Shown: in pieces, positions 356 to 30,904 of the stretch | Position numbering within the stretch: position 1 is the first letter of the stretch | Layout: each line of letters begins with the position of its first letter | Origin: an uncultured Chloroflexia bacterium | Lineage (GTDB): Bacteria > Chloroflexota > Dormibacteria > Aeolococcales > Aeolococcaceae | DNA: 64,000 nt | Assembly: GCA_963846365.1 (NCBI GenBank) | Contig: CAWJVN010000002.1 | Coordinates: forward strand, 692,157-756,156 | Direction of reading: 5' to 3' | Translations under genes and position numbers: made by a program | The notes under the pieces: model-generated | What the model saw: the letters and a program-made list of their open reading frames with translations, nothing else | Told to the model about the DNA's origin: nothing | Database searches by the model: none

Positions 356-2280
356 ATCGCGGTAGGGACCGCCCTTTCGGGCGGCCCCCCGCACGGATCC
401 CAGCGAGCGCGTCTAACGCACTGGGCTCCTGCCTCGGGTACTGGCGGCGAAGCGCACTTCGGGGAAGGGGTGCGAGATACGTACTGCGGGGAGCCACCGA
501 GTGGCGAGACGGCCCATCCGAGTCCACGGCAGCCGGCTGCGTTGGCTGCGCTGGCGCAGCTGTCGCCGCCAGAGCCATACCACCTGGTCCCGGAAGGCGC
601 TGGTCGCCCGGCCGTTGCCGGGTACCGCGTAGTACGCAAGATGGCCGCGCACCACGCTTGCCAGCCATCGCCCTTGCTCGGCAAGGGGCAGATGCTGCTT
701 GCTCCAGAGAGCGTGCTTGATCTCCTTGAGCTTGGCCCGCATCCGCTTCTTGATCGTGACCCGCCGAACCCAGAACCGCCCGTGCTCAGCCCGCACGCAC
801 ATGTGCGTGAAGCCCAAGAAGTCGAACGTCTCCGGCTTCCCAAGTCCCCGCCCCGCCCGTCGGCTCGACGGCGTACCGACCGAACTCGATCAGGCGCGTC
901 TTCTCGGGATGCAGCTCCAACGAGAACCTCGCGAAACGCTCGCGAAGAGCCCGAAGGAACCGATCAGCGTCGTCCCGATGCTCGAACCCAGCCACGTAGT
1001 CGTCCGCGAACCGGACGATCAGCATGTCACCCCGCGCGCTGCGGTGGCGCCACTGCTGGGCCCACAGGTCAAAGACGTAATGGAGGTACACGTTCGCCAG
1101 CAGCGGCGATAGCGACGCTCCTTGCGGCGCTCCCTCGGTCTCCGACCATCTCCCCTTTTCGATGACCCCTGCGCTCAACCACCTTGCGGATGAGACGCAG
1201 GACCCTTCGGTCTGCGATCCGGTGCTCGAGGAACTTCACCAGCCACGAGTGATCGATCGTGGTGAAGAAGTCGCGGAGGTCCGCATCGAGCACCCAGTTC
1301 ACCTTCTTCCGCAGGATCCCGGTGGCGAGCGCATCCAGCGCGTTGTGCGGGCTGCGCCCTGGCCGGAACCCGTAGGAGAAGCCCAGGAAGTCCGTCTCGT
1401 AGATGGCGCTCAGCACCTCGACGACCGCCCGCTGCAGGATCTTGTCCTCCAGCGAGGCGATGCCGAGCGGCCGCTGCCGCCCGTCCGCCTTGGGTATGTA
1501 CGCCCTTCGTGACGGCCTCGCCCGGTAGCTGCCACGGTGAAGCCGCCGGTGCAGGTCCAGGAGGTTCTCCTCCAGGTCCTGCCCGTAGGCCTCCCAGGTC
1601 ACCCCGTCCACCCCAGGAGCGGCCTCGGGGCGCAGGCCCCGGTAGGGGCCACCCGGAGACGGTCGAGGTCGACATGGTGCAGCAGCGCCGTGAACCGCGC
1701 GTTCCTGTCCCTTCGTGCCGCGTCGCGCACACGGTCCAGCTCACTCGGCGCGCCCTGCCCGGCTCTGGGTCCGGGGCGCGTGTCGCTGGCCGTGTTCCCC
1801 TTGGCCAGCCCCCTTTCCTCCACCGCCTCCGCAGCCGCTCCCGCGGCGTTGTTCGGCGGCTTCACAGGTACTACAGGGCTGTCTGACTTCCCATGGTCGT
1901 GCATCTCAGGCGTGAGGCCTCGGCCTTCCCTGAGCGGCCAGTCCGGTGATCGGCCGGACGGGCGACCGTGGGATCTCCCGGTTCTCGTGCATGGAGATTC
2001 CGCGCATGCTCAGGTTCTGGGACCGCGCGAGGTCCGGCAACAGCTCGCGAGTAGCGCTGCTGCCGATGTGGCCTTCCGCCTCCGTCGACGGCGTCGGCAC
2101 CCCGATTGTGCTTATTTCGCGGCTCAATGGCCCGGCCTACGCGTACCCCTGTCAACGCTTCGCCCTCGCCCTCACGGACGCCGACGCATGACTCGGGGCC
2201 ATCGTGGGTCGCTACCCCTTCGATGTAGAGCTCTCTCATCTCCTTCTCCATGCCGGTTTATCCCGGCGCTCCGACGGTGC
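356..2280 (-). mobile_element. Group II intron copy A (bacterial ORF-containing type, RT+maturase, no endonuclease domain), degenerate
   Basis: Minus-strand frames encode RT domains 0-7 including the YADD box (FADDYV) and a maturase/X domain. About 95% nt identity to the second copy at 28986-30904. Similarity starts at ...ATCGCGG (plus strand), so the minus strand ends ...CCGCGAU, consistent with a 3' terminal AY. A GC-rich GAAA-capped hairpin lies about 20 nt from the 3' end. The 5' limit is set only by where similarity to copy B ends; no canonical GUGYG was found. Confidence 0.75.
413..1744 (-). pseudogene. Group II intron-encoded reverse transcriptase/maturase, split over at least 3 frames
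   Basis: ORFs 1175-1744, 1069-1611, 786-1178 and 413-817 carry consecutive parts of one IEP (motifs GVDGVTWEAYG, YIPKADGRQRPLGIASLEDKILQ, QGASLSPLLANVYL, FADDYV, maturase RGHLAYYAV) but in different frames. Confidence 0.75.
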
Positions 2281-2410
2281 GAGAATCTTCCTCGGCACGA
2301 GAACTGACGGGATGACCGAGCCCGCACGGGCTGACCGTCAGGTCAGGAAAGGGGCTTCTCGGCGCCACGGACGGTCGATCGCCATTGGAATGGGTGCTGG
2401 CGCCACAACC

Positions 2411-2851
2411 TCAGCCGATCTGTTCGGCCAGAGCGACGATGATGCCTGCGGGGCCGCGGAGGTAGCAGAGCCGGAAGATGCTCTCGTACTGCGCCACCTC
2501 GCCGAGGAGTTCGGCGCCGTGGGCGCGCAGGCGGGCGATGGTGTCGTCGATGTCGTCGACGGCGAACATGACGCGATGCAGGCCCAGCGTGTTCGGCGGC
2601 GGGTTCTCCGGTTCGGCGCCGGACGCCGCGGGGGTGTGGTACTTGGTCAGCTCCAGCTTGCTGTGGCCGTCCGGGGTCCGCATCATCGCGATGTCGCTCC
2701 GGACGCCGTCGACTCCGACGGTGCGGTCCGCCCAAAGGCCTTCGATCTGCCCCCTGCCTTCCAGCTCCATGCCGAGCTCGGTGAAGAACGCGACAGCCGC
2801 GTCTAGGTCGTCGACGACGATGGCGACGTTGTCCATCCGCTGAATAGTCAT
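2411..2851 (-). CDS. VOC family protein (glyoxalase/bleomycin-resistance/dioxygenase fold)
   Basis: 146-aa product MTIQRMDNVAIVVDDLDAAVAFF...HRVMFAVDDIDDTIARLRAHGAEL, a typical paired beta-alpha-beta-beta-beta VOC module; ATG start at 2851 inside the longer track ORF. Confidence 0.7.
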   Translation of the reverse strand: MTIQRMDNVAIVVDDLDAAVAFFTELGMELEGRGQIEGLWADRTVGVDGVRSDIAMMRTPDGHSKLELTKYHTPAASGAEPENPPPNTLGLHRVMFAVDDIDDTIARLRAHGAELLGEVAQYESIFRLCYLRGPAGIIVALAEQIG

Positions 2852-28887: not shown

Positions 28888-28985
28888 CCGCGGATCAGGG
28901 AGCCTTGTGCGTTTCGCCGCACCGCACTGGTCTCCAAGACTGTCGTGGCACGAATGCTGCCCAAGGAAGGCCACACTGGACCAGG

Positions 28986-30904
28986 ATCGCGGTAGGGACC
29001 GCCCTTTCGGGCGGCCCCCCGCACGGATCCCAGCGAGCGCGTCTAACGCACTGGGCTCCTGCCTCGGGTACTGGCGGCGAAGCGCACTTCGGGGAAGGGG
29101 TGCGAGATACGTACTGCGGGGAGCCACCGAGTGGCGAGACGGCCCATCCGAGTCCACGGCAGCCGGCTGCGTTGGCTGCGCTGGCGCAGCTGTCGCCGCC
29201 AGAGCCATACCACCTGGTCCCGGAAGGCGCTGGTCGCCCGGCCGTTGCCGGGTACCGCGTAGTACGCAAGATGGCCGCGCACCACGCTTGCCAGCCATCG
29301 CCCTTGCTCGGCAAGGGGCAGATGCTGCTTGCTCCAGAGAGCGTGCTTGATCTCCTTGAGCTTGGCCCGCATCCGCTTCTTGATCGTGACCCGCCGAACC
29401 CAGAACCGCCCGTGCTCAGCCCGCACGCACATGTGGGTGAAGCCCAAGAAGTCGAACGTCTCCGGCTTCCCAAGTCCTCGCGCCGCCCGTCGCTCGCCGG
29501 CGTACCGACCGAACTCGATCAGGCGGGTCTTCTCGGGATGCAGCTCCAAGGAGAACCTCGCGAAACGCTCGCGAAGATCCCGAAGGAACCGATCAGCGTC
29601 GTCCCAGCTCGAACCCAGCCATGTGGTCGTCCGCAAACCGGACGATCAGCATGTCACCCCGCGCGCTGCGGTGGCGCCACTGCTGGGCCCACACGGTCGA
29701 AGACGTAATGGAGGTACACGTTCGCAAGCAGCGGCGACAACGACGCTCCTTGCGGCGCTCCCTCCGTCTCCGACCATCTCCCCTTCTCGATAACCCCTGC
29801 GCTCAACCACTTGCGGATGAGACGCAGGATCCTTCGATCTGCGATCCGGTGCTCGAGGAACTTCATCAGCCACGAGTGATCGATCGTGGTGAAGAAGTCG
29901 CGGAGGTCCGCATCGAGCACCCAGTTCACCTTCTTCCGCAGGATCCCGGTGGCGAGCGCATCCAGCGCGTTGTGCGGGCTGCGCCCTGGCCGGAACCCGT
30001 AGGAGAAGCGCAGGAAGTCCGTCTCGTAGATGGCGTTCAGAACCTCGACGACTGCCCGCTGCAGGATCTTGTCCTCCAGCGAGGCGATGCCGAGCGGCCG
30101 CTGCCGCCCGTCCGCCTTGGGAATGTACACCCGTCGTGATGGCCTCGCCCGGTAGCTGCCACGGTGAAGCCGCCGGTGCAGGTCCAGGAGGTTCTCCTCC
30201 AGGTCCTGTCCGTAGGCCTCCCAGGTCACCCCGTCCACCCCAGGAGCGGCCTTGGGGCGCAGGCGCCCGGTAGGCCACCCGGAGGCGGTCGAGGTCGACA
30301 TGGTGCAGCAGCGCCGTGAACCGCGCGTTCCTGTCCCTTCGTGCCGCGTCGCGCACACGGTCCAGCTCACTCGGCGCGCCTTGCCCGGCTCTGGGTCCGG
30401 GGCGCGTGTCGCTGGCCGTGTTCCCCTTGGCCAGCCCCCTTTCCTCCACCGCCTCCGCAGCCGCTCCCGCGGCGTTGTTCGGCGGCTTCACAGGTACTAC
30501 AGGGCTGTCTGACTTCCCATGGTCGTGCATCTCAGGCGTGAGGCCTCGGCCTTCCCTGAGCGGCCAGTCCGGTGATCGGCCGGACGGGCGACCGTGGGAT
30601 CTCCCGGTTCTCGTGCATGGAGATTCCGCGCATGCTCAGGTTCTGGGACCGCGCGAGGTCCGGCAACAGCTCGCGAGTAGCGCTGCTGCCGATGTGGCCT
30701 TCCGCTCCGTCGACGGCGTCGGCACCCCGATTGTGGTTATTTCGCGGCTCAATAGCCCGGCCTACGCGTGCCCCTGTCAACGCTTCGCCCTCGCCCTCAC
30801 GGACGCCGACGCATGACTCGGGGCCATCGTGGGTCGCTACCGCTTCGATGTAGACCTCTCACATCTCCTTCTCCATGCCGGTTTATCCCGGCGCTCCACG
30901 GTGC
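28986..30904 (-). mobile_element. Group II intron copy B, degenerate
   Basis: About 95% identical to copy A over about 1.9 kb; same orientation; similarity ends at ...ACGGTGC on both (30904 here, 2280 in copy A). Confidence 0.75.
29043..30370 (-). pseudogene. Group II intron-encoded RT/maturase, one frame disruption near 29690
   Basis: ORF 29654-30370 carries RT domains up to LLANVYLHYVFD; ORF 29043-29636 carries the rest (thumb plus maturase). Copy B has one extra base (cccacacggtcg versus cccacaggtca in copy A). Confidence 0.75.

Follow-up and report, generated by a model that had tools for sequence, protein, structure and literature searches.

A probable pair of decaying class E group II introns around a 26.7-kb segment of a Chloroflexia genome

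Two direct copies of one element

We analysed a 64,000-nucleotide stretch of DNA (the window) from an uncultured Chloroflexia bacterium (GenBank assembly GCA_963846365.1, contig CAWJVN010000002.1, positions 692,157 to 756,156 of the forward strand), in which two long and closely similar sequences lie in the same orientation on either side of a segment of host DNA. These sequences are very likely two copies, hereafter A and B, of a single bacterial class E group II intron, with an IIB-like ribozyme and a reverse transcriptase (RT)/maturase devoid of an endonuclease domain, which were inserted separately and have decayed since. The main parts of the locus are as follows:

356–2271, minus strand: group II intron copy A, 1916 nt, with 5′ end GAGCG and 3′ end ...CCCUACCGCGAU; the ends are conserved in relatives and in the alignment of the two copies
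28986–30896, minus strand: group II intron copy B, 1911 nt, the same element as copy A
2272–28985: bracketed host segment, 26,714 nt; GC content 0.697 versus 0.688 to its right, with no compositional island

A repeat search of the window returned eight collinear direct-repeat blocks (94–99% identity; start-to-start spacing of 28,625–28,630 nt). When both regions were globally aligned on the minus strand, the similarity was continuous, with an abrupt start and an abrupt stop: 1870 of the 1918 columns match, i.e. 97.5% identity (98.0% without gaps), the remainder being 39 mismatches and nine gap columns. The repeat pair is real and far above chance. An initial annotation, made from the sequence of the window, had proposed two group II intron copies in direct orientation on the minus strand with 26.7 kb between them, which is what we found, although its estimate of about 95% identity was too low.

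The boundaries of the element were sought in 78 related loci fetched from species-representative genomes, for which the sequences 5′ and 3′ of each open reading frame (ORF) were aligned. All relatives end in ...UCCCUACCGCGA(U/C/A) and similarity stops there, confirming positions 356 and 28986, while conservation on the other side begins at G(U/A)GCGCCGGGAUAAACCGG; conservation across relatives thus covers both ...CCGCGAU at the 3′ end and G(U/A)GCG at the 5′ end. We set the boundaries at 356–2271 and 28986–30896 from these conserved ends and from the pairing between exon-binding site 1 (EBS1) of the intron and intron-binding site 1 (IBS1) of the 5′ exon, described below. The 3′ ends had been placed exactly by the initial annotation, whereas its 5′ ends (2280 and 30904) lie 8–9 nt too far out and take in similar bases of the 5′ exons.

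Intron-encoded protein and ribozyme

Each copy carries the remnant of an RT/maturase gene:

413–1904, minus strand: RT/maturase ORF remnant of copy A; ATG at 1904, TAG at 413–415 inside the domain V loop; broken by +CC at 1645–1646, +G at 1183 and +C at 863
29043–30530, minus strand: RT/maturase ORF remnant of copy B; ATG at 30530, TAG at 29043–29045; broken by +C at 30265, +G at 29694 and −AT at 29606/29607

Once the ORF fragments had been stitched and the frame repaired, a single protein of 495 aa was available for profile searches. This intron-encoded protein (IEP) matches the NCBIfam model TIGR04416 (group II intron reverse transcriptase/maturase) with 350.6 bits, above the cutoff of 300, and in Pfam it matches RVT_1 alone (131.8 bits). 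No endonuclease domain was detected in the repaired protein with Pfam or NCBIfam, and the protein ends 44 residues past the TIGR04416 match. More than 8000 database proteins are related to it at E<1e-100, the best of which (P0001) is 94% identical and uninterrupted. The type of RT had been named in the initial annotation as a test of its proposal, and the TIGR04416 match settles it in favour of group II, retron and Drt models scoring far below their cutoffs.

An RT of retron, diversity-generating retroelement or defence type was accordingly rejected: the retron St85 model reached 43 bits (cutoff 235), the Drt2, Drt3a and Drt4 models 31–52 bits (cutoffs 200–450) and the retron and Drt models overall 26–52 bits, and a ribozyme is present.

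The ribozyme is made up of the following parts:

2013–2236, minus strand: copy A, core of domains I–IV; RF02005, 190.1 bits, E 9e-56, model positions 1–225
30639–30859, minus strand: copy B, core of domains I–IV; RF02005, 176.7 bits; substitutions specific to B break extra stem pairs
395–429, minus strand: copy A, domain V; AGC triad, 2-nt bulge UC and 5-nt loop, from the single-sequence fold and the consensus structure
29025–29059, minus strand: copy B, domain V, identical to that of copy A
358–393, minus strand: copy A, domain VI; the branch-point A (363) is bulged and precedes the 3′ splice site by 7 nt
28988–29023, minus strand: copy B, domain VI; branch-point A at 28993, 7 nt before the 3′ end

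A scan of the whole window at Rfam gathering thresholds gave exactly two matches, both to RF02005 (group-II-D1D4-6; gathering score of 49), both on the minus strand and both over the full model. The ribozyme is small, with about 370 nt located 5′ of the ORF, and domains V and VI overlap the ORF end. The Rfam model of these two domains (RF00029) gave no match at E≤1 in the window, and their structure was therefore examined directly, through a consensus fold of the 76-nt tail of 24 distinct relatives. Of the 28 pairs of this consensus, 13 display compensatory double changes, and the window sequence satisfies every pair. In domain V, the lower helix contains the AGC triad, and above it come a bulge of 2 nt, an upper helix of 4 bp and a loop of 5 nt (compensatory changes at seven of 13 pairs); domain VI holds a bulged UA, its A lying 7 nt from the 3′ end, and the intron terminates in AU. 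Failure of domain V to fold would have told against the initial proposal; both domains fold, with covariation behind them.

Among about 45 related loci, most have A facing the G of the AGC triad and some have U, the A giving G.A instead of the usual G.U wobble. Judged from these sequences, the A is a family trait and not damage. In the same set, the domain V loop is always of 5 nt, and the bulge, which reads UC in the window copies and in one relative (L014), is AC in most.

Class assignment

We assign the introns to bacterial class E, an assignment that rests on one named reference, S.me.I4, itself identified by elimination, and not on a full phylogeny. In Sinorhizobium meliloti GR4, plasmid pRmeGR4b is reported to harbour S.me.I4, a class E intron that is disrupted (PMC5894124). 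Over the whole plasmid, we found three group II elements: RmInt1, an RF01999 fragment and an RF02005 element with a truncated RT. The third was taken as S.me.I4 because the other two are RmInt1 and the RF01999 fragment. This RF02005 element (locus L090 14636–16493, i.e. NC_019847 64636–66493) scores 145 bits; between its RT and the window IEP, identity is 58%. Other references are further away: the RT of RmInt1 (class D, matching RF01999) is 32% identical, and those of three introns chosen from the table of Toro and Martinez-Abarca (PMC3552965) are 37% (Ni.ha.I1, class F/g3, matching RF02003), 38% (Rh.sp.I1, unclassified, matching RF02003) and 34% identical (Rh.js.I1, g1, with an RF00029 match only and no D1–D4 family). 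Thus, the RF02005 match and the 58% RT identity in common with S.me.I4, versus 32–38% to the class D, F/g3, g1 and unclassified references, argue for class E, as do the 5-nt domain V loop and the small ribozyme, both known from IIE and IIF introns (PMC3753933).

Membership of class F/g3, of g1 or of the unclassified group was considered and rejected, RT identity being only 34–38% and the ribozyme family either RF02003 (Ni.ha.I1 and Rh.sp.I1) or lacking among D1–D4 models (Rh.js.I1). A search against solved structures did not resolve the class, as IIC, IIB and IIA RTs all scored 119–144 bits. On pRmeGR4b, the RF01999 (class D-type) fragment of domains I–IV (L090 23389–23507) has no annotated RT adjoining it.

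Insertion sites and exon recognition

The sequences involved in target recognition, and the genes between which the two copies lie, are listed here:

2082–2087, minus strand: EBS1 of copy A (CGACGG), located in the terminal loop of domain I; complete 6/6 pairing to CCGUCG of the 5′ exon
30707–30712, minus strand: copy B EBS1, CGACGG, in the same loop as in copy A
2272–2280, minus strand: 5′ exon end of copy A, GCACCGUCG, with IBS1 CCGUCG at 2272–2277
30897–30904, minus strand: 5′ exon end of copy B, GCACCGUG, i.e. the copy A site minus the C at −2; IBS1 register imperfect
347–353, minus strand: 3′ exon of copy A from +3 to +9, UGGUCCA; same motif at the same offset in copy B
28977–28983, minus strand: 3′ exon of copy B from +3 to +9, UGGUCCA, from the alignment of the two copies
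Copy A site: between the VOC/glyoxalase stop (2411) and the paaX start (about 259), both genes on the minus strand
Copy B site: flanked by an FAD-oxidoreductase gene, which stops at 31079, and by a convergent LuxR-type gene, which ends at 28887

The EBS1 hexamer occupies a constant position in the family, in the terminal loop between GCYGACG and GGAAGG, and it covaries with the exon: 22 of 32 distinct loops are complementary at all six positions to the six bases that end the exon, versus 8% of mismatched exon/loop controls. When aligned, the 5′ exons read GCACCGUCG for copy A and GCACCGU-G for copy B. The intron-less junctions would be ...GCACCGUCG followed by GGUGGUCC... at copy A (3′ exon also written GGUGGUCCAACG) and ...GCACCGU(C)G followed by CCUGGUCC... 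at copy B (3′ exon also written CCUGGUCCAGUG). The two target sites agree at −1 to −9 (allowing for the missing C of copy B), at −13 to −15 and at +3 to +9, and are unrelated beyond about −15 and +12. The similarity of the flanks noticed in the initial annotation is therefore real as regards the 5′ exon bases and UGGUCCA, but the ‘atcgcgg’ that it included belongs to the intron's own 3′ end.

Because this likeness is confined to the recognition footprint of the intron, we favour two separate insertions over a duplicated block. Duplication at the DNA level of a segment carrying one intron, instead of two retro-insertions, could account for the 774 nt that are identical between the copies and for the few flank bases in common. 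It is exceedingly unlikely, since flank likeness stops at about −15 and +12, as target recognition through IBS1 and its neighbours predicts, and no further repeat surrounds either copy.

Both introns are co-oriented with the gene upstream and lie 140–180 nt downstream of it. This position would be explained by a class C (IIC) intron inserting after terminator hairpins, and several other observations fit: the small ribozyme, the lack of an endonuclease domain, a hairpin just upstream of copy A and of several relatives, and the rank of IIC RTs, which are the top solved-structure matches by a marginal difference (144 bits versus 127 and 119). The probability of this explanation is nevertheless close to nil. 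The elements possess a full 6-nt EBS1 that covaries with the exon, no terminator-like site is present at either junction, the Rfam family and RT identity point to a class E intron, and relatives residing in one genome have 15–20 nt of 5′ exon in common, as homing introns do.

The separate insertions of a class E intron were probably ectopic, at look-alike sites instead of a preferred homing site. Candidate EBS2–IBS2 helices of at least 6 bp between loop and exon were found in 31% of relatives versus 12% of controls, yet only 4-bp candidates, no better than chance, exist at both window sites, and it is their weakness, in a family that shows an EBS2 signal, that suggests ectopic retrotransposition. 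The proposal of homing into related target sites, made in the initial annotation, is supported by the complete EBS1–IBS1 pairing at copy A and by a likeness restricted to about −15 to +9, but the weak IBS2 fits ectopic insertion better than a true homing site.

Further unoccupied target-like sites were searched for in the window, which yielded seven weak matches (two or three mismatches) versus 2.0 on average in shuffled sequences; one of the 100 shuffles gave as many. GC skew is flat and does not tell whether the introns lie on the leading or on the lagging strand; gene-strand bias is 3:1 and agrees with intron orientation.

Decay of the copies

Changes were polarised in a three-way alignment with the contig that encodes P0001 (L079; 94.6% DNA identity), in which the element is intact. 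No indel is common to A and B, each of which has three private ORF frameshifts, so that the frame would have been open in their common ancestor. The initial annotation had described at least three breaks in copy A, which stands (there are three), and one in copy B, where comparison with L079 reveals three; that the indels differ between the copies was also correct. After frame correction, neither copy contains an internal nonsense codon. Outside the ORF, copy A has an additional insertion in domain I (+G at 2080), and copy B bears five private substitutions in its first 161 nt (intron positions 36, 42, 55, 127 and 161), some of which break domain I stems. Of the lineage-specific substitutions, 18 of 31 fall at third codon positions, and codon changes are synonymous in 19 cases versus non-synonymous in 10, a bias suggesting that much of the divergence between A and B predates inactivation.

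As assembled, neither copy would be able to make its own protein or to move by itself, and splicing would require that another copy provide the maturase.

Objections and the question of assembly errors

Several observations count against the interpretation of the pair as decayed class E introns at ectopic sites, besides the dependence of the class on a single reference. RF00029 failed to match the window copies even at E=1, although it recognises the homologous position in two relatives (L016 and L020). The copies begin with GAGCG and not with the GUGYG expected of group II introns, a departure that the initial annotation had rightly reported. The ectopic character of the insertions is deduced solely from the weak 4-bp EBS2 candidates. 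For neither insertion could an empty site be found, and exact look-ups of two window proteins matched nothing; homologues of the VOC gene at 97–99% identity occur in other contexts, and their homology ends at position 2320, 48 nt before the insertion site. A metagenome scan for a second intron with the same EBS1 returned none, only one chance 23-mer in an unrelated coding region. Lastly, every lesion that breaks the ORFs is an indel of 1–2 nt, mostly a duplicated G or C, without stop codons, as consensus errors in a repeat would give, and at least three host genes of the window are also split across frames, so that some or all of the intron indels may be assembly errors.

The unusual 5′ end can be placed in a family context. 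More distant relatives have a canonical GUGCG at the same aligned position, whereas GAGCG is common to the nearest relatives, including copies with an uninterrupted 495-aa ORF (L001, L002, L008, L009, L012, L027 and L056). Since EBS1–IBS1 pairing fixes the junction, GAGCG would be a lineage variant of position 2 and not a displaced boundary, and since it also occurs in related copies with uninterrupted ORFs, we do not regard it as a sign of decay. Among these relatives, 5′ ends other than GUGYG are frequent; in a sister group (L003, L004, L007, L011 and L031), the EBS1–IBS1 register leaves one or two additional bases ahead of AAGCG, with GA(A)AGCG as the apparent start.

The nature of the indels raises the alternative that the introns are intact and active, the frameshifts being errors in the consensus of an assembly that is long-read or poorly polished, and clustering in a repeat where reads mis-map. 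Domains V and VI are intact and identical in both copies, the EBS1–IBS1 pairing of copy A is perfect, and the substitutions look selected (with the synonymous excess and the lack of nonsense codons described above), all of which would be expected of live elements. However, many of the long host genes have an unbroken frame and match their domains over the full length, among them those for proteins of 782, 634, 601, 532 and 412 aa; roughly four host frameshifts were counted in about 60 kb of window versus six in about 3 kb of intron ORF; and the substitutions that break domain I stems in copy B are not explicable by indel errors. We thus consider widespread assembly error unlikely, and real decay of the introns likely, because frameshift density in the intron ORFs, about tenfold that of host DNA per kilobase, exceeds what the remainder of the window displays.

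Three split host genes were noted. A LuxR-type STAND regulator (26030–28887, plus strand) lies in three frames, with AAA_16 in ORF 26030–27004, its middle in 26466–28289 and GerE in 27421–28887; a GMC oxidoreductase (17465–19150, minus strand) has its N-domain and C-domain in different frames; and a gene with zinc-ribbon, adenylate-cyclase and AAA_16 parts (39096–41359, minus strand) is split across frames. Either a pseudogene-rich genome or assembly indels would produce this picture.

A mosaic of identical and diverged segments

The differences between the two copies are unevenly distributed along the element (intron positions, minus strand):

Positions 1–192: seven differences between A and B; four sites at which A and B agree but L079 differs
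Positions 193–516: no difference between A and B; 24 sites at which A and B agree but L079 differs
Positions 517–1466: 41 differences between A and B, including all six ORF frameshifts; 22 sites at which A and B agree but L079 differs
Positions 1467–1916: no difference between A and B; 26 sites at which A and B agree but L079 differs

The clean stretches, of 324 and 450 nt, add up to the 774 identical nt mentioned above, and the close relative differs there by 6–7%. If 46 events are scattered at random, the probability is 2e-4 for a clean stretch of at least 450 nt and 1e-5 for the two longest stretches jointly. The clean 3′ stretch spans 131 codons with zero synonymous changes, and selection at the protein level cannot account for it, since synonymous changes are lacking too. 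Among polarised changes, those derived in A are mostly AT-to-GC and those derived in B mostly GC-to-AT, and the polarised changes suggest that the tree differs along the element. Gene conversion between the copies would be the simplest reading; otherwise, the central segment may come from other, more diverged copies (mosaic ancestry). This mosaic is the only hint of interaction between the copies.

Taken together with the target sites, these data are compatible with the following course of events. Each copy would have arrived by reverse splicing and reverse transcription at a separate intergenic site, recognised mainly through the 6-nt EBS1–IBS1 pairing and a few neighbouring positions. After insertion, and if the assembly is correct, each would have acquired its three private frameshifts in the RT gene; copy A would also have gained its domain I insertion, and copy B the stem-breaking substitutions in domain I and the loss of 1 nt in IBS1. 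Parts of the copies may have been homogenised by gene conversion, unless the copies are recombinant mosaics.

A different combination of the same observations seems rather improbable to us: both copies would be live members of an actinobacterial class E subclade with artefactual frameshifts, a GAGCG 5′ end and G.A at the AGC triad, and would exchange sequence by gene conversion. In that case, the pair would serve as an active substrate for recombination, with a 26.7-kb metabolic segment in between, and its catalytic core would depart from two near-universal features of group II introns, the GUGYG end and the G.U at the AGC triad.

The bracketed segment and neighbouring genes

By Pfam, the genes of the bracketed segment encode VOC/glyoxalase, ERCC4-Lsr2, GNAT, FAD monooxygenase, TetR and enolase-superfamily proteins; an aldose epimerase, GH15, SDR, two GMC oxidoreductases and a gluconate-2-dehydrogenase subunit 3; and a TPP enzyme, PpoB2, DUF1326 and the LuxR-type STAND regulator.

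In principle, a direct repeat of 1.9 kb could recombine and delete or duplicate the 26.7 kb in between, which is a generic possibility. A stronger proposal is that the pair is functionally meaningful, the introns being arms for recombination through which the metabolic segment is excised, amplified or mobilised as one unit. The length of the repeat and its 97.5% identity would suit this role, the perfect-identity stretches of 324 and 450 nt suggest sequence exchange, and recombination between intron copies has been considered a source of deletions (PMC5894124). We find the proposal very unlikely, however: the segment is compositionally not distinct, Pfam scans tied no integrase or transposase genes to its ends, the flanks are independent intron targets and not the ends of a transposed unit, and any long direct repeat has an equal potential.

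A few features of this region were recorded alongside. The VOC/glyoxalase gene (2411–2915) displays 97% DNA identity to JGI soil-metagenome contigs (loci L080–L084), where its neighbours are MarR upstream and a DDE transposase downstream, and about 90 nt past its stop (2320–2413) are also common to these contigs, at 84%; the gene has the appearance of a conserved module whose neighbourhood varies and is prone to insertions. The area that the initial annotation had called a ‘TA/nuclease islet’ comprises two small ORFs without Pfam match (3837–4109 and 4119–4409), followed by the gene for a 344-aa protein (4470–5504, plus strand) with an ERCC4 nuclease and a C-terminal Lsr2 DNA-binding domain. 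Between the TPP-enzyme and GMC oxidoreductase genes, a 124-aa ORF (22533–22907, plus strand) contains a 42-nt tandem repeat (22621–22858; 5.6 copies, 86% match) encoding six 14-aa repeats ETPERQAHPVMGA(I/L), and is overlapped by a minus-strand ORF without Pfam match.

The pair is an ordinary decaying pair of class E introns, a new sequence variant of a known element type, and its significance beyond annotation is small. Both regions are best annotated as group II intron pseudo-copies and not as strings of short ‘hypothetical’ or RT-fragment ORFs, and the pair marks a possible point of genome rearrangement. Two aspects are of modest interest to intron specialists: a GAGCG-starting subclade with uninterrupted ORFs and mostly G.A opposite the catalytic AGC, and the sharp alternation of identical with diverged segments along the two copies, suggestive of gene conversion between them.

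Comparison with known systems

Like class C introns such as B.h.I1, the window copies are compact elements without endonuclease that lie between genes, in the orientation of the gene upstream. IIC introns have a shortened EBS1, part of which is missing (PMC3753933), and no EBS2, and they recognise terminator or attC hairpins. The window copies differ from them in their 6-nt EBS1 and in having no terminator at either site.

RmInt1 (class D, IIB3) offers another point of comparison, with a life cycle in S. meliloti made up of colonisation, ectopic transposition, then inactivation and fragmentation (PMC5894124). Common to both systems are an endonuclease-less IEP, multiple copies per genome, ectopic IBS-like sites and later decay by point mutations, and in both the intron copies are discussed as recombination or deletion substrates. 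In contrast, the natural target of RmInt1, which belongs to class D and RF01999, is an insertion sequence element, whereas the window copies lie in plain intergenic DNA. The introns of class F/g1–g4 (Toro and Martinez-Abarca 2013, PMC3552965) are similar in their endonuclease-less RT-X protein, 5-nt domain V loop and length (1911 nt for Ni.ha.I1).

Differences from class E systems are the GAGCG instead of GUGYG, the G.A instead of G.U opposite the AGC-triad G (in many relatives likewise), the long N-terminal extension of the 495-aa IEP, the lack of a demonstrable EBS2–IBS2 pairing and the pseudogenisation of both copies. IIE and IIF introns are characterised by a 5-nt domain V loop and a ribozyme of 450–700 nt, and the class E examples Cl.be.I2 and P.l.I1 were studied in the same work (Nagy et al. 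2013, PMC3753933). It is class E, and S.me.I4 in particular, that the window copies resemble in their RF02005 match, 58% RT identity, RT-X protein without endonuclease, small ribozyme and 5-nt domain V loop, as well as in the 6-nt EBS1 that class E introns bear in a domain I terminal loop.

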